16,283 nt of DNA, from the UHGV virus genome UHGV-0153204; one strand, written 5' to 3'. This DNA is from a virus. Below the pieces are notes generated by a model, which worked only from the letters and a program-made list of their open reading frames with translations, did no database searches and was not told where the DNA came from. Shown in pieces: positions 1,216 through 16,283 of this stretch. Positions within the stretch are counted from its first letter, which is position 1; every line of letters starts with the position of its first letter. Position numbers and translations under genes: made by a program.

Positions 1216-2391
1216 ATGGATATAACTTGTTTAGAATGTGGCAATGTTCTTGACGACCCAACTGTAGCTTGCGATAAATGCGGTGCCACGCCTCATGTTG
1301 TAGCGCTGGGCAAACAATCGTACTTTCCTATTGGTGCTGTAACAGCAAATCTTGAAAAAAATGATTCAAGAGCATTTGATTATCGATTAGGTGAAGTTTG
1401 GGATCTAAAAAATGAAGTCACATCTGAATTCATAACCAGAATTGAGAAAAAATTTAGCCGAAAAAACAAATTTCATAACTTCCTAGACTCAGATCACAAC
1501 CCTTCATCCATTCCTACGATCCTAAAAAAATACATTAATAAAAATAATGAATTCATTGATTTATCTAGAGCTATAATAGAGAAGCTTAAACATAATGCTA
1601 ATAACGAATCGAGAGTTGCCCAACTTCAGGGGGGGAGCGTTGTTTTCATCCACTATAAGTCTACCGAACCAGAGGATTTGGGGAAACTTCTAATCGTAAT
1701 GGTTGATAAACAAAGCGCCTATGACTTTGATTCGGATAAGTTGACCCCAACAAGATTAAATCCAATTAATACCGATGCCTTACGGCAGGCTGCGATGTTC
1801 GATTTAACTTTATTCGAAGCCAGTTATCCAGAAAACAAGGGTGACTCATATGTACATTTCTTGCAAGGTAAATCTAAAAGCGATTTTTTCAAAGACTCAT
1901 TAGGTTGCCGACATGATTCGGACAATAAAAGAAGCATTCAGCAATTATTCAGTGCTATAGATATTTTTGCTAGTAAAAACTCACTCGGTCGTGTACTGCG
2001 TGATACTATTGACAATGAAGTTAAATCCTTACTGGAAAAAAAATCAAAAGATAAACACGGAAATAAGTCCGTTAAGATAGAGGATATTTCAAAAATAATT
2101 GACTCATGCCTGACTGATTCACACAAATGTAAGGGAACGTTTGTCGATTTTGTTAATCTTAATGGTTTCCAGATTGACCCTCAATTTGAACCAACTCCTA
2201 AAGCAGCTGAAAGCGCGCTTACAATTGAAGTGGCAGATAACGACAATAATTTTAAGTTGAAAATAATGCGTGGAGCTATTGGAGACGAAAAGTCAAATAA
2301 GCCTGTAATTCTCACTGACAACAAATGCGAAATTGTGATAAAATTGAGTCAGGCAAATTATGATGAACTCAAAAGATATAGAGACAGCTAA
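1216..2391 (+). CDS. Hypothetical protein: N-terminal CxxC...CxxC zinc ribbon plus NdpA/YejK-like nucleoid-associated-protein domain (candidate cassette gene A)
   Basis: 391 aa ORF, visibly AT-rich. N-terminus CLECG...(12 aa)...CDKCG. The central region GGSVVFIHYK...YVHFLQGKSKSDFFKDSLGC resembles the GGFVLFCHY...[23 protein letters not shown] block of E. coli YejK as I recall it. Needs HMM confirmation. Confidence 0.7.
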   Translation: MDITCLECGNVLDDPTVACDKCGATPHVVALGKQSYFPIGAVTANLEKNDSRAFDYRLGEVWDLKNEVTSEFITRIEKKFSRKNKFHNFLDSDHNPSSIPTILKKYINKNNEFIDLSRAIIEKLKHNANNESRVAQLQGGSVVFIHYKSTEPEDLGKLLIVMVDKQSAYDFDSDKLTPTRLNPINTDALRQAAMFDLTLFEASYPENKGDSYVHFLQGKSKSDFFKDSLGCRHDSDNKRSIQQLFSAIDIFASKNSLGRVLRDTIDNEVKSLLEKKSKDKHGNKSVKIEDISKIIDSCLTDSHKCKGTFVDFVNLNGFQIDPQFEPTPKAAESALTIEVADNDNNFKLKIMRGAIGDEKSNKPVILTDNKCEIVIKLSQANYDELKRYRDS

Positions 2392-2393
2392 TA

Positions 2394-3608
2394 ATGACAA
2401 TTGCTGATGACTTATCAAGATTAGCGCAGATTATTAACGGAGCCTCAAGCAGAGTTGAGGGCTACTACACTGTCATAAGTCTTGAAGAAAGCATTGTTAT
2501 TGTAAATAGTTCTGAAATAATTAGACTGTTACAATCTATAGGTTATAAAAAGGCAACAACCTGCATCGAAAATAATGAAATTTGGCTAGATCGCCAAGCT
2601 TCATCTTGGGATGATGCTATAATTTATGAGAATGTTGAGTCTTTTTGGTCTAGAGTAAACACCCAAAACGCTCTTCCGAAAAATTATATCATCGGAACGC
2701 CGTTAATACTCCCTACTTCTAAGAATGAAAGCATCGAAAAAATCCATATTTTCTTTATGTGGAAAGATATCCTTTCATTAATTTCTGATCATCATAACAG
2801 TGACTGCTCTGTCTTATTTTTCACCAATGAAGACAAAAGTTATACAGTCGAACTCACGCATTTTTTACAATATAGCGAGATTAATCGCTTATCGAACTCG
2901 TCTCTTAAATATGAAATTATAAAGGAGCTTCTCGACACAATAAAAATCAATGATTTACACAAAAGCGAGCGCAAGCTCGTTATACGCTCAGCCATAAACG
3001 AAGTATTTAAAGCAAATGGTACGTTCAATTTCTTTGACTTGCTTAACTCTACTGAACTCGTCAGGAAAAAATATGATGAACTATATGAGATTTACACAAA
3101 GAGGTTTTCTGTAAATAAAATTCTTAACGAACTCGATGAGAAAAATCTTGAGTTCACGAGTAAAATTAACGAATTCATATCATCTAATCAGACAAAAGCA
3201 TTGACTATTCCCGGTGCATTAATAGCAGCTGGTGGCTTAGTGAAGGCTAATGAAACAACCGAAGCAATATTGATTATCGCAGGACTTTGGATGATAAAAA
3301 AAGTCAATTACATTTCTATTGAGATATTCAATGAAACATTCGACAACTTACGTTCTCGAGTGGAGTCCGCTTTCGATAAGTATTTAAAGTTTGAAGAAAA
3401 TAAAGAAATCAAAGATAATGCAGATAGTATTAAGAGTAGCATTACAGGTTTGATTGATAAAGCTAAAAAAAGGATGAGAACTGTTAAATATCTCGCATCA
3501 GCCATGTTTTATGGAGGCCTTATTTACGTTGGATATAAACAGTTCCCAGTCTTTTTTGAAAAATCGGCAGTAAATCTATTTTATTTTTTATGCCATACTA
3601 TAAGCTAA
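2394..3608 (+). CDS. Hypothetical protein with predicted C-terminal membrane-spanning segments (candidate cassette gene B)
   Basis: 404 aa ORF starting 2 nt after the gene A stop (likely translationally coupled). AT-rich, Lys/Asn/Ile-rich. Hydrophobic segments ALTIPGALIAAGGLV / AILIIAGLWMI and YLASAMFYGGLIYVGY near the C-terminus. No recognisable catalytic motif by eye. Confidence 0.7.
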   Translation: MTIADDLSRLAQIINGASSRVEGYYTVISLEESIVIVNSSEIIRLLQSIGYKKATTCIENNEIWLDRQASSWDDAIIYENVESFWSRVNTQNALPKNYIIGTPLILPTSKNESIEKIHIFFMWKDILSLISDHHNSDCSVLFFTNEDKSYTVELTHFLQYSEINRLSNSSLKYEIIKELLDTIKINDLHKSERKLVIRSAINEVFKANGTFNFFDLLNSTELVRKKYDELYEIYTKRFSVNKILNELDEKNLEFTSKINEFISSNQTKALTIPGALIAAGGLVKANETTEAILIIAGLWMIKKVNYISIEIFNETFDNLRSRVESAFDKYLKFEENKEIKDNADSIKSSITGLIDKAKKRMRTVKYLASAMFYGGLIYVGYKQFPVFFEKSAVNLFYFLCHTIS

Positions 3609-3959
3609 CATTGCTAAACAGCCATCAACAAACCCCATTGCAGTTTGCAGTTCCTTCCTAATTGTGCCATCAGAGCATTTTCTCTTCTTCGCAATAGTGC
3701 GTAATGAGATACCGATAACAAAGTGGGCGATGATGAGCTCATATTCCTCTGGTTTATACCTTCTCAACCGAGCCACACAACTGTCTATCATGATGCCTTC
3801 GTCATCATCACACTGAATCCGTGACTTTTTGCCATGAGGTAAAAGTCCCTTGAAACCAGCCGCTATCGGCTGCCAGTCCACTCCGCTATTGTCTGAAGCA
3901 GCCCAAGCTCCCCAACGATCCATTACTTCATACATATCACGCATCAACTTTCTCCACAA
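3588..3959 (-). CDS. Q: Late antiterminator Q (QuuD-like short Q family)
   Basis: 123 aa; motif pattern RWGAWAA...W..IAAGFKGL...KSR.QC.DD...CSDG.I.K.LQ.A.GF matches DLP12 QuuD-type Q proteins as recalled. Lies upstream (in phage orientation) of the lysis genes. True start may be the internal Met (MRDMYEVMDRWGAW). The 3' end overlaps the convergent cassette gene B by about 21 bp. Confidence 0.75.
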   Translation of the reverse strand: MWRKLMRDMYEVMDRWGAWAASDNSGVDWQPIAAGFKGLLPHGKKSRIQCDDDEGIMIDSCVARLRRYKPEEYELIIAHFVIGISLRTIAKKRKCSDGTIRKELQTAMGFVDGCLAMLAYSMA

Positions 3960-9464: not shown

Positions 9465-9713
9465 TTACTTTTCATCTGATGAATCTTTAATCTTTTGAAA
9501 AATATCTGGACGTAATTTTTCTTTTGATATGCCAGTGGTCTTTTCAATGAATATCGAGAGCTTTGCAGGGGGACGCTTTTCTCTGTTCAACCAGTTCCAG
9601 ACATGTTGTTGCTTTACTAAATGACCGCTGCTGGCTGTGAGCTTCCGAGCCAATTCTGATTGACCACCAGCCAGAGCGATTGCCTCCGATAAGGCTAATT
9701 GCTCAGGTGTCAT
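9465..9713 (-). CDS. Cro / YdaS-like HTH transcriptional regulator
   Basis: 82 aa; HTH GGQSELARKLTASSGHLVKQQHVWNWLN. Divergently transcribed from the CI-like repressor across a repeat-rich operator region. Strong SD (AAAGGAGA) upstream. Confidence 0.75.
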   Translation of the reverse strand: MTPEQLALSEAIALAGGQSELARKLTASSGHLVKQQHVWNWLNREKRPPAKLSIFIEKTTGISKEKLRPDIFQKIKDSSDEK

Positions 9714-9848
9714 AGCTTTCTCCTTTTTTGGTAGTTAAGTTGTTACGAGTTGCAAGAATACAACATTAACAACTTTTATCACAACTTTTAGGTGTTGGAA
9801 AGCTAAAACATAAAGTTGTAACCTCATCAAAAAAGAGAGGGATATGTT
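9714..9848. promoter_or_regulatory. Divergent operator/promoter region between cro-like and cI-like genes (OR-like)
   Basis: Repeated inverted motifs: AAGTTGTTAC (9737..9746), TAACAACTT (9768..9776), ACAACTTTTA (9781..9790), TAAAGTTGTAAC (9811..9822). Sits between divergent regulator genes. Confidence 0.6.
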
Positions 9849-10535
9849 GTGAAAACACTGGCAGAACGATTAAAGATAGGTAGAGAGAAAGCTGGCATGA
9901 GCCAAGCTCAACTAGCTGAAAAAATTGGACTTTCACAACAATCTGTAGCCAAAATAGAGAATGGCGAAACTCTACAACCGCGCAAAATTAAAGAAATTGC
10001 AAAAGTTTTAGGTGTATCACAAAAGTGGTTACAACTTGGTATTGAAGACAACGCATCCATACCTGATCTTGTTGTAAAAGAAGCAGAAAGCACCGCATTA
10101 GACCCCGATATTTTCGTAAACATTCCTGTTTTAGATGTCGAGTTATCGGCAGGTAACGGATGTCTGGCTGAAATAGTTGAATCAGCTATTGACTGGTTTC
10201 CGTTAAGAAGAGCAGATTTGAGAAAATCTGGCGTATGTGCATCTAATGCCAAGATCGTAAAAATATGGGGGAACAGTTTATTACCGGTTCTCAATAATGG
10301 AGATCTTGTTGCCGTTGATATTTCTCAAACCGTTCCTATTCGTGATGGCGATCTTTATGCCGTACGAGATGGTGTATTGCTAAGGGTTAAAATACTTATC
10401 AACTTACCTGACGGTGGCTTGATTCTTAGAAGCTTCAACAAAGATGAGTACCCAGATGAAATACTTACCTTTGAAGATAGACGAGCCAGAATTCATGTTA
10501 TAGGTAGGGTATTCTGGTCATCGCGAACTTGGTAA
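9849..10535 (+). CDS. cI: CI-like prophage repressor (N-terminal XRE HTH + C-terminal S24 LexA-like peptidase domain)
   Basis: GTG start at 9849. HTH GMSQAQLAEKIGLSQQSVAKIENGE; C-terminal region with GNSLLP (Ser) and LRVKIL (Lys) typical of S24 autocleaving repressors. Confidence 0.85.
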   Translation: MKTLAERLKIGREKAGMSQAQLAEKIGLSQQSVAKIENGETLQPRKIKEIAKVLGVSQKWLQLGIEDNASIPDLVVKEAESTALDPDIFVNIPVLDVELSAGNGCLAEIVESAIDWFPLRRADLRKSGVCASNAKIVKIWGNSLLPVLNNGDLVAVDISQTVPIRDGDLYAVRDGVLLRVKILINLPDGGLILRSFNKDEYPDEILTFEDRRARIHVIGRVFWSSRTW

Positions 10536-11408
10536 TGCATCGAAAAGCATTTCTTCAGAAATAATTTTAAGTTTTGCACCATTATCATCTCTATAAGATA
10601 TAGCCTTTTCGATCTTCCTTCCGTGACTAGAGAATTTCCAATCACGGGAGGAAAGCGTCCCAATTACTAAAAAATCCAACTGTTGAGTAATTCCACTACT
10701 GATGTTCCCACCAGCATTTTTAATCAAATTTTCAACTACGGCTCTCTTTCCTGCAACAAAAGTGCCTGTAAGACAATAGGTTTTACCCTCTAACTCTATC
10801 GAAGCCTCTACATCAATAGGCAGCCTGGTCGCCAAACCATCCACCACCCCACTTTCCAAGTCACATCCTGTGAAGTCTACTAATGCCTTATGTAGAGTTA
10901 AACTCTCATCTTCAGTAATAACACCATCTTTAAGAATTTCCTTTACAAGTGCATAAAGTTTTTTTCCTGGGTAGTTGTTCTTCAAAGCTCCATTTTGCTC
11001 AAGCCACCAATTAAGATATCTTATTTCTTCTTGAGTTAAGTTCCGATCAGCAATTAATCCTTTACATAGTCCATTAAGTAAATGGACATCTACATCCTTG
11101 GAGTAAAAATCAATTTCAGGGATATCAAGAATTTCCCTCTGTATTTGGAGAAGGCTATTTTTAAGGTCATCACGTTCTTCTGATGTGATTATTCCATCCG
11201 CAAGAATATCCGACACCCGTGCAGATAGACTTTTTATAACTCCATTATTGATAATCTGCTTTGCTTCAAGTAACCATGTATCTAAGTAAAGAACCTCCTC
11301 TTCACGGACAACTCCATCTGCAATGATTCCATCAATGATGCTAATCAAGTTAGCAAATAACTTGTCCCGGTTCTGTGTGTAATTAAAAGCGTAAAGCGCG
11401 TCTTCCAT
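10518..11408 (-). CDS. Hypothetical protein: four tandem ~36-aa repeats plus C-terminal BRCT-like domain (immunity-region accessory gene)
   Basis: Likely start ATG at 11408 with perfect SD (AAAGGAGGttgtATG); the ORF track begins at 11438. Repeats share a hydrophobic-ADG-hydrophobic-(I/V)(T/R)xEE...L core (IIADGVVREEEV, ILADGIITSEER, LIADRNLTQEEI, ILKDGVITEDES). C-terminus GKTYCLTGTF...DFLVIGT...KLKIISEEMLFDAL resembles the LigA-type BRCT domain. AT-rich, convergent with cI. Confidence 0.7.
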   Translation of the reverse strand: MEDALYAFNYTQNRDKLFANLISIIDGIIADGVVREEEVLYLDTWLLEAKQIINNGVIKSLSARVSDILADGIITSEERDDLKNSLLQIQREILDIPEIDFYSKDVDVHLLNGLCKGLIADRNLTQEEIRYLNWWLEQNGALKNNYPGKKLYALVKEILKDGVITEDESLTLHKALVDFTGCDLESGVVDGLATRLPIDVEASIELEGKTYCLTGTFVAGKRAVVENLIKNAGGNISSGITQQLDFLVIGTLSSRDWKFSSHGRKIEKAISYRDDNGAKLKIISEEMLFDALPSSR

Positions 11409-11439
11409 ACAACCTCCTTTTTTTGATAATCCTTGCACT

Positions 11440-11530
11440 CCTTGGCCACTCGTTCAAACCACATAAAGTTGTTGACAACATTCAAAACCACAACTAAATT
11501 ACAACTTAAAGGTGTTAAAACAACGAACAG
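11440..11530. promoter_or_regulatory. Second operator-like region (OL-like) with consensus-like plus-strand promoter
   Basis: Shares ACATAAAGTTGT and ACAACTT(T/A)(T/A)AGGTGTT blocks with the cro/cI intergenic region. TTGACA (11472..11477), 17-bp spacer, TAAATT (11495..11500) on the plus strand. Also upstream of the minus-strand BRCT gene. Confidence 0.45.
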
Positions 11531-11613
11531 GCAGGACGCCCACGAAGTAGCCCGCCTGGTACGTACGAAGACCGGGATGATTCGTTAGCGGATGATTTCA
11601 GTGGAGAGAATAG

Positions 11614-11922
11614 ATGAATGAGCAGAATTTGAAGCATGTGATCGCATTGTTGCTGGAAGACGCTAAACGTTTGCAGCAGATAGAGCCAAATGCAGGCACT
11701 GAGGCCCGTATTTTGTTAGCAAAACAGGCATTAAAGACTTGCGGGGCGCAAGACCCTGATCGAACCAAGTTCATGAATTTCATGGCTAACACGATCACCC
11801 CCCTGCCATGCAATGGAGAGAGGGTGAGCCGTGTTTATCACGACACAATGGTTAAGGCATTAAGAATCGAGCTTGATGGGCTTAGGCGTAAGATCGTGAT
11901 GAACAAAATCGTTGCCAACTAA
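11614..11922 (+). CDS. Hypothetical early-left protein
   Basis: 102 aa ORF with SD GGAGAG 5 nt upstream; helical-looking composition. First gene downstream of the OL-like promoter. No recognisable family; not similar to lambda N by eye. Confidence 0.45.
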   Translation: MNEQNLKHVIALLLEDAKRLQQIEPNAGTEARILLAKQALKTCGAQDPDRTKFMNFMANTITPLPCNGERVSRVYHDTMVKALRIELDGLRRKIVMNKIVAN

Positions 11923-12203
11923 GGAAGCAGACGGAAGTAAGCATGCGCTTTGTTCAAATTTGCAGACAAATATATTTGCGTCAACACCAGCACTGTTAGC
12001 AATGGAAAAAGTTTGATCAAGGATTTGTTGGCAGTTCATTGTGCTTTTGAGGATATATCCCTCTGGAATCAGTCTGCAGCAGCTATCGTCAGACTCTTTG
12101 ATTGTTTTCTGGTACAGAAAGTTAAGCATTAATTCTTCAAATTTTTTGGTCTGTTCGGCTGTTGCTTCAAACAGACGAACGTGAACATAAAACTGGTTCA
12201 TTA
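11860..12203 (-). CDS. Hypothetical protein (minus strand, overlaps 3' end of preceding plus-strand ORF)
   Basis: Best start ATG at 12203 with SD AAGGAAACC. N-terminal MNQFYVHVRLFEATAEQTKKFEELMLNFLYQK looks protein-like. 63-bp convergent overlap with 11614..11922 means at least one of the two may be mis-called. Confidence 0.4.
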
Positions 12204-12299
12204 GGTTTCCTTGCTGGCTGTGTGAGAACTCCAGCATACCACCGAGCCTGAAGTGGTGAAAAGACAGGCAATAGTTTCATTGCTGTGTGTAGTCTTGGA

Positions 12300-13133: not shown

Positions 13134-13394
13134 ATGAGGTTATCAAAAATGCTTCAAATGCTGACACTTGAAGAATGGGCTGCGGAAAAATTTAGGAGTA
13201 ATCCTCCAAGTGTGTCCACATTGCGTCGTTATGCTAAGCAGAATTTATTTTGTCCACCAGCAATGAAACAAGGTCGACTCTGGCGAGTACGTGAGGACGC
13301 AGAGTTAGTTGGGGAATTAGTTACTCCAGTAATCAAGAAAAGTGATTCTATTATTCTGCAAAGGATTTTAAGCAATGGCAGCCAGACCACGTAA
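13134..13394 (+). CDS. xis: Excisionase Xis
   Basis: MLTLEEWAAEKFRS...LRRYAKQNLFCPPAMKQGRLW parallels lambda Xis (MYLTLQEWNARQRR...VRRWVRECRIFPPPVKDGREY). Overlaps the int start as in lambda. True start may be 13149 or 13158 rather than 13134. Confidence 0.8.
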   Translation: MRLSKMLQMLTLEEWAAEKFRSNPPSVSTLRRYAKQNLFCPPAMKQGRLWRVREDAELVGELVTPVIKKSDSIILQRILSNGSQTT

Positions 13395-14502
13395 AAATAA
13401 TGTTTCAGTACCTAACTTGTATCCGCTTTATAGTAGAAAAGTAAATAAAGTCTATTGGCGATATAAGCATCCAGTGACCGGGAAATTTCATTCGTTGGGC
13501 ACAAATGAAGCTGAAGCTATTGCTATTGCCACTGAAGCTAACACTCGTCTGGCTGAGCAAAGAACCCGGCAGATTCTAGCTATCAGTGATAGGATCGCAA
13601 CCAGCAAAGGAAAAGCGATCACAACGTCAACCTGGTTAGATCGTTATCAAGCGATCCAGGATGACAGGCTCAAAAGTGGTGATATAAGACTCAACACCTA
13701 TAAGCAAAAAGCTAAACCAGTATCCTTGCTCAGAGAACGAGCAGGAATGAAGTTGATCTCATCCGTTGATGTTAGAGATATAGCACAATTGCTTGATGAG
13801 TATATTGCAGCTGGACAGCCTAGAATGGCCCAAGTCGTTAGGTCTGTATTGATCGATGTGTTTAAGGAAGCACAGCATTATGGCGAAGTTCCGCCAGGGT
13901 ATAACCCTGCTCTTGCGACGAAGCAACCCAAAAGAAAAATTACCCGTCAACGCCTCAGCCTGGAAGAATGGCAAAAAATATTCGATATAGCAGACGCCAA
14001 TCATCGTTACATGGGAAATGCCATGCTCCTAGCTTTGGTCACTGGGCAGCGTTTGGGAGATATATCCAAAATGAAATTTAGTGATATTTGGGAAGATCAT
14101 CTTCACGTCATTCAGGAAAAGACTGGAAGCAAAATCGCTATCCCTCTTTCTCTTCGCCTCAATGCGATTAACTGGAGTTTACGCGATGTTGTAGCGCGCT
14201 GCCGAGACTATGCGGTTAGCCCATATTTAGTGCATTTTTTCCGTGCAACATCACAGGCAGAACGTGGCGCACAAGTTAAATCCAATACATTGACGATGAA
14301 TTTTAGTAAAGCGAGAGATTTAGCAGGAATTGACTGGGGAGAAGGTTCACCTGCCACATTCCATGAACAAAGGTCTTTATCTGAACGTCTGTACAAAGAA
14401 CAGGGGTTAGATACACAAAAACTACTTGGCCATAAAACACAGCGACAGACAGATCGATACAATGACGACCGAGGCAAAGGATGGAACAAGATAGCGTTGT
14501 AA
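13375..14502 (+). CDS. int: Tyrosine recombinase, lambda-family integrase
   Basis: 375 aa, colinear with lambda Int by eye (PNLY, HSWLDRY, VVTGQRVGD-like LVTGQRLGD, catalytic C-terminal HKTQRQTDRYNDDRGKGWNKIAL versus lambda HKSDTMASQYRDDRGREWDKIEI, including the tyrosine). Confidence 0.93.
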   Translation: MAARPRKNNVSVPNLYPLYSRKVNKVYWRYKHPVTGKFHSLGTNEAEAIAIATEANTRLAEQRTRQILAISDRIATSKGKAITTSTWLDRYQAIQDDRLKSGDIRLNTYKQKAKPVSLLRERAGMKLISSVDVRDIAQLLDEYIAAGQPRMAQVVRSVLIDVFKEAQHYGEVPPGYNPALATKQPKRKITRQRLSLEEWQKIFDIADANHRYMGNAMLLALVTGQRLGDISKMKFSDIWEDHLHVIQEKTGSKIAIPLSLRLNAINWSLRDVVARCRDYAVSPYLVHFFRATSQAERGAQVKSNTLTMNFSKARDLAGIDWGEGSPATFHEQRSLSERLYKEQGLDTQKLLGHKTQRQTDRYNDDRGKGWNKIAL

Positions 14503-14843: not shown

Positions 14844-15434
14844 TTACTCACCATCATCTAATTCGTTTAAAAATCTGGCAAGAACATCTCCGTGGCACGG
14901 ATAGGGTTTGCAATGGCAACCAAGGATTTTTCCTTTATGTGCTTTCAGCTTTTCTTTGAAATCCTCTCCCCCTTTTAAAAAATTTCTATCAAAGTCATAC
15001 TTAAACTTTCTTATAACTTCATCACGATCACCATCTGCTCCAATCGCATAAGGATTACCCCATAAAGTACCGCGACCGCAATATACATCGAAGTGTTCCC
15101 CCCTGTCTTTATTGGATACAAAAGTAATTTTGTCTTTTATATACCTTACGGGAATTTGTGATGCTAACGTTTCATAAATTGTTGTGAACTCAGGTTTCAA
15201 AGCTGAATCAAAAACAACGGCATGCGTTAAACCAAGATTATAAGGATCTGTAAGAAGGTCAGGATCAAGTTTAAAAATCAAATCAGAAGAAAAATAGTCA
15301 TGTATCAAGTTCTGGTTATCTTCAAAATAAAATACTTTGTATTCACTCGATTCGGAGAAGATACGGGTAAGCTTTCGCTCAAACTTACCCTTTGAAGCAA
15401 AATCAGGATGATACATAACTAGTACTTTCATCAT
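14844..15434 (-). CDS. DUF4326-like domain protein with N-terminal extension
   Basis: C-terminal FDVYCGRGTLWGNPYAIG...GKILGCHCKPYPCHGDVLARFL matches the DUF4326 signature as I recall it (..CGRP..WGNPF...L.C.C.P.pCHGDVL). AT-rich. ATGA-type overlap with the upstream DUF488-like gene. Confidence 0.55.
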   Translation of the reverse strand: MMKVLVMYHPDFASKGKFERKLTRIFSESSEYKVFYFEDNQNLIHDYFSSDLIFKLDPDLLTDPYNLGLTHAVVFDSALKPEFTTIYETLASQIPVRYIKDKITFVSNKDRGEHFDVYCGRGTLWGNPYAIGADGDRDEVIRKFKYDFDRNFLKGGEDFKEKLKAHKGKILGCHCKPYPCHGDVLARFLNELDDGE

Positions 15435-15871
15435 ATTAAATGCTTAACCTCAAAATCTGCATCCCAGTGCTTGTTCAGATATTCTATCACAAGACGACGA
15501 TGACAGTGATGGGGTTTGTGCTCACTACATAACAAGCAACCGTCAGAGATTAAGCTCTTATCAATACGTTCAATATTCCTTTTTTCCATAAGATTCAGAA
15601 AGTTATCTTCGTAAACTTCCCACGAAACATTACCTTTTTTATAAGGGTCGAGTATCTCTTTAGTTGGGGCGAGCTCTGGAACATGGGCGTAATCTACCCC
15701 GCACAACTCACGAAGGAAAAATTCGAGGTCCTTCTTTTTAGCAAAACCAGCAAGTTGCGACACGTTATTTAGCCGGACATCAACTAGGGTTTTGATTGGC
15801 TGCGACTTAATCAAGGTAAAAAATTTTTCAGCAGTTTTTTCAGTAAAGCCAATTGAGTATATCTTCAACAT
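15431..15871 (-). CDS. DUF488-like domain protein
   Basis: 146 aa; MLKIYSIGFTEKTAEKFFTLIK...LVDVRLNNVSQLAGFAKK...LLCSEHKPHHCHRRLVIEYL fits the DUF488 family pattern as recalled. Same operon as the DUF4326-like gene. Confidence 0.55.
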   Translation of the reverse strand: MLKIYSIGFTEKTAEKFFTLIKSQPIKTLVDVRLNNVSQLAGFAKKKDLEFFLRELCGVDYAHVPELAPTKEILDPYKKGNVSWEVYEDNFLNLMEKRNIERIDKSLISDGCLLCSEHKPHHCHRRLVIEYLNKHWDADFEVKHLI

Positions 15872-16240
15872 AGTATGTCTGCTATAAGTTTATAATGGAA
15901 ACCACCAAAAGTATCTAAAGCAAGACTAATGGTGATATAAGCATTCTCATGAATATGTGTACCTAATGGTTTGTTTTCATAATAATCTAACCAATAAATA
16001 TCTGTGATTTTTAAATTGTAAGTAGTGCCGTTATATACAAACTCGCCTCTTAGCTTTAATTTATCGCCCCATTTAGATGCATAGATTGTTAGTTCTCCAA
16101 CATAAATAAAATATAAACTTTCATCAATTTCTTGGGCTTCTTGAGGAGTTACTTGATCGTTGATCCCACCACCAGACTCATTATTATTATCCCACAATGA
16201 ATCTGGGGTGTCGCATAATAAAGATAATGCGGCGTCTGTA
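15865..16240 (-). CDS. Hypothetical protein, 5'-truncated (N-terminus lost at contig end; apparent start is adapter-derived)
   Basis: The ORF as called begins MCIRDS..., encoded by the Nextera mosaic-end sequence at 16241..16259, so the real gene is incomplete at its 5' end. Remaining sequence is AT-rich with no recognisable domain. Confidence 0.4.
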
Positions 16241-16283
16241 CTGTCTCTTATACACATCTGACGCTGCCGACGACTTAATAGGT
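16241..16283. other. Illumina Nextera transposase adapter read-through (non-biological)
   Basis: 16241..16273 is CTGTCTCTTATACACATCTGACGCTGCCGACGA, i.e. the Tn5 mosaic end CTGTCTCTTATACACATCT plus Nextera adapter tail. The following CTTAATAG + GT is consistent with an 8-nt index and the start of the flow-cell primer segment. Confidence 0.93.

Follow-up and report, generated by a model that had tools for sequence, protein, structure and literature searches.

Which kind of gene fills the space between the repressor gene cI and the left operator and promoter (OL/pL) in a lambdoid immunity region without rexA and rexB? Exclusion systems have classically been found among repressor-adjacent genes, rexAB being one example. 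The question is raised by UHGV virus genome UHGV-0153204, analysed here over its whole length of 16,283 nucleotides (the window), in which a gene for a BRCT-domain protein takes this place. We have found that the gene is a prophage accessory that occupies the slot beside the repressor and whose architecture no validated system shows. This position has been kept in four or more phage lineages that differ in gene order, and the family is frequently mislabelled as DNA ligase. As for its role, we consider it quite possible, though short of probable, that the gene encodes an accessory protein expressed in lysogeny, which would target DNA ends or nicks for exclusion or defence.

The gene and its repressor partner are arranged as follows.

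10518–11408, minus strand: coding sequence of the repressor-linked BRCT protein, 296 amino acids (open reading frame; RefSeq; PHROG 3989; homolog of Vibrio phage K139 orf2)
11413–11419, minus strand: Shine-Dalgarno sequence AAGGAGG, 4 nucleotides before the ATG (sequence; nearly invariant in 15 diverged loci)
9849–10535, plus strand: cI repressor gene (HTH_3 and Peptidase_S24; open reading frame and domain matches), convergent, its last 18 nucleotides overlapping the end of the BRCT gene
9465–9819: cro (9465–9713, minus strand) and the right operator region (OR) with four operator motifs at 9737–9819, the rest of the co-inherited immunity module

The minus-strand open reading frame ending at 10518 has two possible starts, a GTG at 11438 and an ATG at 11408. 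Both the Shine-Dalgarno sequence and the ATG are kept across the 15 diverged loci, whose proteins are 68–91% identical, and RefSeq gives the same 296-residue product in a 99.6%-identical E. coli prophage copy integrated next to icd. Since the conserved start and the RefSeq annotation agree, 10518–11408 is the coding sequence. The ratio of non-synonymous to synonymous substitution rates (dN/dS) is 0.056 against the 91%-identical copy in the viral contig L037, which is the closest diverged pair and the one used, dS being saturated for the other pairs. That is, the gene is real and, from this one unsaturated pair, under purifying selection. An earlier, sequence-only reading of the window had described a single AT-rich gene at these coordinates, convergent with cI and with an excellent Shine-Dalgarno sequence, and each of these points stands (GC content 37.9%, versus 44.9% for the window).

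Does the gene belong to the immunity region, or does it only happen to lie there? In all 86 enterobacterial loci that we have compared (80 from IMG/VR and 6 genome loci, with proteins 68–100% identical to the window copy), the cI homolog stands tail to tail with the BRCT gene and is followed by cro. The three genes diverge in step. Just 3 loci share the promoter-side genes with the window, and 1 further locus matches them in part; the cII-like gene is mosaic among the loci, and conservation in the upstream alignment ends just past the second OL operator. From the co-divergence and this boundary, the inherited unit is OL–gene–cI–OR–cro, i.e., the immunity region. The rexAB-equivalent slot beside cI, as the sequence-only reading had called it, thus lies inside a block that is inherited as a whole between mosaic flanks.

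On the other hand, the gene can be lost from this block. Among complete E. coli genomes, the window-type cI is present in 48 and the BRCT gene in 47. The odd genome out, E. coli RMDEC465 (NZ_CM177019.1; L090 4688–4995), has a ~715-base-pair internal deletion of the BRCT gene, which keeps the gene start, the Shine-Dalgarno sequence, the promoter, the operators and the last ~48 codons; cI (93% amino acid identity), cro and ymfL are intact there, and several neighbours are flagged as pseudogenes. In addition, the 91%-identical copies in two viral contigs (L037 2237–3124 and L038 5001–5888) carry a stop at codon 242. This codon encodes K in most members and Q in the window, and AAA to TAA and AAA to CAA are each one first-position change; therefore, the window copy is unusual at this basic position by BRCT strand 3. 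Overall, the gene is found in 17 of 50,697 phage records and 47 of 5,426 E. coli genomes. The internal deletion, the nonsense codon and this rarity show that it is accessory, and not a universally conserved phage component, the case that the earlier reading had set against its own proposal.

What does the gene encode? The predicted protein consists of three domains.

11115–11387, minus strand: helical module 1, residues 8–98, four helices with two A-D-x6-E hairpins (D31/E38 and D71/E78) (structure model; HHalign against module 2)
10851–11099, minus strand: helical module 2, residues 104–186, a duplicate of module 1 (D121/E128 and D161/E168), weakly TerB-like (structure model; HHalign; conservation)
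10539–10793, minus strand: BRCT domain, residues 206–290, of LigA/RFC1 type, with phosphate-pocket residues T214-G215, R222 and K265 (Pfam PF00533)

The N-terminal part had been described as four tandem repeats of ~36 residues. The repeat units are real according to their z-scores, but they are organised as two duplicated four-helix modules with two A-D-x6-E hairpins each: the N-terminal 190 residues are two copies of a module of ~85–90 residues (HHalign 99.7%, E 2e-26). In the structure model the helices of module 1 span residues 10–28, 36–48, 56–69 and 76–95. Conservation was counted over 60 diverse family members. The acidic pairs D31/E38, D121/E128 and D161/E168 are 92–100% conserved and D71/E78 75–80%; within module 1, D31 is kept in 57 of the 60, and E38 and W45 in all. 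The model, built on the 60-sequence alignment after an earlier one from 15 close homologs had proved mediocre (predicted local distance difference test, pLDDT, 72.9) and was discarded, shows one rigid unit at high confidence (pLDDT 93.6, predicted template modelling score 0.91). The whole protein has an isoelectric point of 4.7 and its BRCT part one of 8.0, and the top 19-residue hydropathy window reaches 1.52, with no clear transmembrane-like segment. The product is therefore predicted to be a soluble, acidic and rigid three-domain body of two four-helix modules and a BRCT domain.

The hairpins may be distantly related to TerB, but the signal is no more than suggestive. Against TerB (Pfam PF05099) the module-2 consensus reaches 19.1 bits, under the gathering cut-off of 24.4; TerB matches at E<0.01 appear in 5 of the 60 members, and the window protein itself has no Pfam TerB match. 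TerB domains occur in the validated defence systems Shango (SngA), Bunzi (BnzA) and Dionysus (DinB). Apart from this possible distant kinship of the A-D-x6-E hairpins, those systems differ from the window gene: they are multi-gene, with ATPase, helicase or membrane partners, while the window gene stands alone, matches none of them in PADLOC and has a TerB score below the cut-off. The weak TerB-like signals would also suit a lysogenic-conversion factor, that is, a protein that benefits the host through stress or DNA-damage tolerance and is unrelated to phage–phage conflict. The prophage accessory position and the AT-rich composition would agree with such a factor. We consider this very unlikely, since the TerB relation is sub-threshold and no Ter-operon partners are nearby.

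The C-terminal BRCT domain is much clearer. Pfam PF00533 matches residues 206–290 at 29.0 bits (gathering cut-off 21.3) and also matches 51 of the 60 members, and the structure confirms the alpha/beta BRCT fold, with a four-stranded parallel sheet flanked by helices. By sequence and profile, its nearest BRCT relatives are those of NAD-dependent ligase (LigA) and RFC1 (p140), and the structural matches include the BRCT-bearing ligase subunit B proteins of T5-like phages. The claim of a C-terminal BRCT domain resembling that of NAD-dependent DNA ligase is thus upheld, the profile and structure searches both finding the fold. In BRCT domains, the phosphate pocket combines an S/T-G pair that follows strand 1 with a basic residue from helix 1 and the first lysine of helix 2. 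In the family the corresponding T214, G215 and R222 are each kept in 59 of 60 members and K265 in 60 of 60; T214 and R222 align with the corresponding RFC1 residues, and we take the four positions to be equivalent to RFC1 T415/G416/R423/K458. A family-specific insert, S-R-D-W-x-x-S-x-G-R-K, precedes helix alpha-2, and its W257, G263 and K265 are invariant. The BRCT domains of LigA and RFC1 bind DNA nicks or 5'-phosphorylated recessed ends, and the domain of the window is predicted to belong to this nick or 5'-phosphate-binding class.

Is the protein then a ligase? The identity as NAD-dependent DNA ligase was considered and rejected: TIGR00575 gives 28.8 bits against a cut-off of 444.45, and the match covers model positions 583–634 of 652. 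More generally, what NCBIfam matches is confined to the final ~50 positions of LigA models and to the BRCT end of a model for a DEDDh exonuclease, with scores far under the cut-offs, and the Pfam scan of the protein has found no adenylation, OB, zinc-finger or HhH domain. Compared with LigA and RFC1, the domain shares the fold, the best sequence and profile matches and the T-G, R and K pocket positions; unlike LigA, the protein lacks all ligase domains but BRCT and adds the family-specific insert. Judging from these matches, the name 'NAD-dependent DNA ligase' on homologs is an over-annotation that covers the BRCT domain alone.

The same kinship raises an alternative, in which the protein would serve the phage's own DNA metabolism and protect or process its own ends or nicks, e.g., by shielding cohesive ends from RecBCD or by aiding LigA in ligation and circularisation, during infection or after induction. 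The closeness to LigA and RFC1 and the T5-like ligase subunits among the structural matches speak for it. Nevertheless, we regard it as unlikely: the protein has no catalytic domain, having just the BRCT of LigA, and the gene, which few of the otherwise similar lambdoid phages carry, can disappear while its neighbours stay.

When would the gene be expressed? The region upstream of it contains the following elements.

11429–11457, minus strand: candidate own promoter, with -35 TTGAAC (11457–11452), a 17-nucleotide spacer and an extended -10 TGcAAGGAT (11437–11429) (from sequence and conservation in 15 loci)
11458–11472: OL operator, on the plus strand ACCACATAAAGTTGT (motif enrichment; near-invariant in 15 loci)
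11472–11515, plus strand: pL-like promoter, TTGACA at 11472–11477 and TAAATT at 11495–11500 (17-nucleotide spacing), with a second OL operator ACAACTTAAAGGTGT at 11501–11515 (promoter scan, motif enrichment and alignment)

That an operator-like region lies upstream had been noticed before, and it resolves into these two OL operators, with a motif near-invariant in the 15 loci. The 7-mer ACAACTT occurs 9 times in the window versus 2.8 expected, and 6 of the 9 lie at 9737–9819 (the cI–cro gap) and 11466–11507; in context the sites are 15-base-pair imperfect palindromes, ACAACTT-n-AAGTTGT. The operator at 11458–11472 is identical at 12 of 15 positions to the OR site at 9805–9819. It abuts the -35 of the candidate promoter and overlaps the -35 of pL by 1 nucleotide. 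The second operator covers the pL start region, and pL itself points away from the BRCT gene.

The candidate promoter rests on the 15-locus alignment, where GTTTGA at 11459–11454 (holding the TTGA of the -35), T-G at 11437–11436, A-A at 11434–11433 and T at 11429 are invariant, and where the 17 positions between -35 and -10 are unconserved in sequence and fixed in length. We infer from these bases an extended -10 with the critical A-11 and T-7, and hence a possible promoter of the gene's own; a simple consensus scan has found no minus-strand promoter upstream of the gene. Lambda CI bound at OR2 has the corresponding place beside the repressor-maintenance promoter PRM, which it activates. As the geometry of the OL operator is like that of OR2 and PRM, CI binding would be compatible with transcription of the BRCT gene, and may even favour it, while pL is shut. 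Repression of the promoter by CI at OL, on the other hand, would make the gene immediate-early and divergent from pL, and would favour a role in the phage's own DNA metabolism. No terminator-like site was found by the consensus scan between the convergent BRCT gene and cI, and PRM and the candidate promoter may therefore interfere.

As a side observation, the non-coding stretch 11513–11589 just 3' of pL is 84–90% identical in 23 phage records (SfII, SfIV, ST64B, YeP1-3, phiNP, mEp460 and others), where it is unannotated. This element is found in about half of the BRCT loci, and a mosaic joint must therefore separate OL from it. Its folding energy is no better than that of shuffled sequences (z -1.3), and Rfam has no match anywhere in the window. 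Possibly it acts in the early-left transcript as a leader, a nut-like element or a terminator.

Is the linkage to the repressor found beyond the lambdoid loci? We have sampled the contexts of distant relatives one protein at a time, and have observed the following arrangements.

Vibrio phage K139: PL–cI–orf2–glo–int, annotated as a lysogenic operon
Aeromonas P2-like prophages: cI, BRCT gene, an ORF of unknown function, int
Oceanimonas P2-like prophage: cI, BRCT gene, GmrSD_N, HEPN, methylase, int
Pseudomonas Detrevirus (D3-like) phages, four records: repressor and then BRCT gene, 30 base pairs apart, same strand
Phage PG1: S24 repressor, one ORF, BRCT gene
Phages Lodos and D14L: BRCT gene beside int
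Sulfurimonas phage SNW-1: BRCT gene first in an operon divergent from cII, followed by a thermonuclease gene

Thus, in K139-like, other P2-like and D3-like phages, the homologs lie directly 3' of cI and are co-transcribed or at least co-oriented with it, like rexAB. K139 orf2 (NP_536630.1) is a homolog over 95% of the length (33% identity, E 2e-39) with the same architecture, and it adjoins cI as the window gene does. It differs in orientation: the K139 gene follows cI within the PL operon, while the window gene runs the opposite way, with an overlap at the end of cI and a candidate promoter of its own. With lambda rexA and rexB the window gene shares its position in the immunity region, between cI and OL/pL, and the co-transcription with cI in homologous phages. 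It is unlike them in being one soluble protein rather than a sensor and a membrane protein, and in being transcribed towards cI; no similarity to RexA or RexB was found in the PADLOC search. Other genes placed after cI include stk of 933W. The cI–int interval of K139-like phages is a hotspot for defence systems (Rousset et al.).

So constant an attachment to cI could also be explained if the protein modulated lysis–lysogeny or induction. It would then respond to a phosphoprotein or to damaged DNA, through the 5'-phosphate found at gaps or nicks, and adjust the RecA-dependent self-cleavage of the S24-type CI or aid the establishment of lysogeny. Several observations fit: the partner is nearly always an HTH and Peptidase_S24 repressor, in four gene arrangements and phage lineages; in P2-like phages the BRCT gene comes first after cI, with variable cargo behind it; cI and the BRCT gene are near 1:1 in E. 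coli genomes; the candidate promoter abuts a CI operator; and the K139 lysogenic operon includes int, so that it is active during the establishment of lysogeny. However, cI, cro and the operators remain intact where the BRCT gene has suffered a deletion or a nonsense change, and there are copies away from repressors, next to int (Lodos and D14L), in defence-island-like loci and in housekeeping synteny. Moreover, the exonuclease fusions described below are ill-suited to a regulator, and low recombination inside immunity modules can alone give linkage. We consider such a modulator improbable. The placement in repressor operons of K139-like and D3-like phages also argues against a role in the phage's own DNA metabolism, as it implies expression in the prophage state.

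What, then, do the relatives suggest about function? The whole protein falls in phrog_3989 over its full length (2.9e-128), which the database labels as of unknown function. An exhaustive profile search has yielded 3,526 representatives at E<1e-3, 388 of them below 1e-30. Two sizes dominate, ~295 amino acids (two modules and BRCT) and ~210 amino acids (one module and BRCT). Among longer members, P0252, P0247 and P0205 have an N-terminal RNase_T/DEDDh exonuclease fused, P0157 and P0221 have HhH2 and a second BRCT, and Shewanella forms of ~395 amino acids have an extra N-terminal BRCT. The family has been known since the K139 sequence, and no characterisation of it was found in the searchable literature. 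Databases already contain the facts at the level of annotation; a concrete hypothesis comes from the linkage to cI across lineages, together with the conserved candidate promoter next to OL and the relatives in which the exonuclease is either fused or a separate gene.

The exonuclease fusion leads to PDC-S48, a PADLOC candidate consisting of a DEDDh exonuclease, a helical module and BRCT. It is the sole PADLOC match of the window protein at E<=1, with residues 119–251 matching model positions 239–377 of 411 (E 2.2e-7). The fused member P0252, which carries RNase_T, matches PDC-S48 at 2.8e-28. Unlike PDC-S48, the window protein has no exonuclease domain (no RNase_T match) and a second helical module instead. 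On a metagenome scaffold from a mobile element with integrase and RepA (L096 1–6588), RNase_T and BRCT-family genes are separate members of one operon, which encodes a DUF4011/AAA_11/AAA_12/DUF3320 helicase of 1,980 amino acids, an SMC-like ATPase of 871, an RNase_T exonuclease of 210, a BRCT-family member of 293 and an ion-channel protein of 233. The BRCT-family gene starts 13 base pairs 3' of the RNase_T gene, and the arrangement can be read as a split version of the exonuclease fusion. By its gene content, the operon looks like an undescribed multi-gene defence candidate. In other loci, the BRCT-family gene adjoins a Septu-like ATPase and HNH pair (Shewanella) or occurs with Nmad2, HTH/M78 and GmrSD_C (Pseudoalteromonas).

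Exclusion or defence seems the most likely purpose of the window gene, because the slot next to cI is used in this way and is a documented hotspot in P2-like phages, and because, in other proteins, the module is found joined to nucleases and forms part of a PADLOC candidate. The BRCT protein would be an accessory of the lysogeny (immunity) module and would be made in the lysogen, from the candidate extended -10 promoter whose -35 abuts the OL operator. Its ligand would be a 5'-phosphate end or a nick in DNA; the BRCT type and the exonuclease fusions make it reasonable to suppose that foreign DNA ends would be sensed. An incoming or replicating foreign phage genome would then be disturbed, resulting in superinfection exclusion or defence. 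Cohesive-end nicks or ends would either be capped, and so be closed to host ligase and replication, or draw in a host nuclease, as the relatives fused to or next to a DEDDh exonuclease may suggest. The integrated prophage, having no ends, would be spared. A more specific version, which we regard as distinctly unlikely in this exact form, is a non-enzymatic end-capping immunity protein: as a mimic of the ligase or RFC1 BRCT, it would recognise the 5'-phosphate at cohesive-end nicks or ends of incoming phage genomes and prevent their sealing or replication, or would pass them to a host DEDDh exonuclease.

Several observations weigh against exclusion or defence. In the window copy, Q242/Q243 stand in place of the K/K of most members, and BRCT pockets bind phosphoproteins too. 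The protein is without an enzymatic or membrane effector domain. The candidate promoter of the gene has been read from conserved bases, and CI bound at the neighbouring operator might act as its repressor. While PRM is active, expression could also suffer from the convergent overlap with cI. According to the record annotation of K139, the published exclusion function is that of the neighbour glo and not of orf2. PDC-S48 itself appears to be just a candidate and not a validated system, as literature searches have found no mention of it; nor did such searches yield a function for K139 orf2, for prophage BRCT proteins or for the TerB link, and PADLOC and PHROG give none either. Finally, chromosomal, non-prophage copies lie in conserved housekeeping synteny in some gammaproteobacterial assemblies; therefore, the family has a cellular role too and does not serve phage conflict alone. 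Such conserved, non-mobile contexts would also suit a lysogenic-conversion factor, although most contexts of the family are prophage immunity regions or mobile elements.

The window carries other cargo as well. A minus-strand cluster of three genes lies at 14844–16257, just beyond int (13375–14502).

15865–16257, minus strand: DuOB dual-OB protein, an open reading frame of 130 amino acids that matches only the C-terminal positions 91–210 of 210 of the DuOB profile
15431–15871, minus strand: DUF488 protein (PDC-M45 component match, 8.3e-68)
14844–15434, minus strand: mSLOG and DUF4326 protein

The DuOB and DUF488 genes match the A and C components of the PADLOC candidate system PDC-M45. As E. 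coli RM7190 has a DUF262 protein in place of this cluster, a second site of variable cargo seems to lie at the int-proximal end. An AT-rich gene pair at 1216–3608 (plus strand), between the lysis genes and a gene at 3588–3959 (minus strand), encodes a 391-residue protein with an NA37 nucleoid-associated-protein domain (1.2e-23) and a 404-residue protein without a Pfam match; neither protein has a PADLOC match. The RM7190 relative carries different genes at this position, and the pair looks like a moron. The first open reading frame after pL, 11614–11922 (plus strand, 102 amino acids, no Pfam match), overlaps the 3' end of the convergent ymfI-like frame 11860–12237 (minus strand) by 63 nucleotides; this pair is common to just 2 of the 86 related loci, with a partial match to the 102-residue frame in a third.

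Considering the repressor-linked gene again, if its product does act on DNA ends or nicks, BRCT, a central reader of DNA damage in eukaryotes, would enter phage–phage conflict, and this would explain PDC-S48. If end-capping in particular is true, the protein would be the first BRCT-based antiviral sensor in bacteria, and a defence gene coupled to CI so closely that lambdoid, P2-like and D3-like phages have all retained the two side by side. If the protein tunes CI cleavage instead, a well-studied genetic switch would gain a new input.

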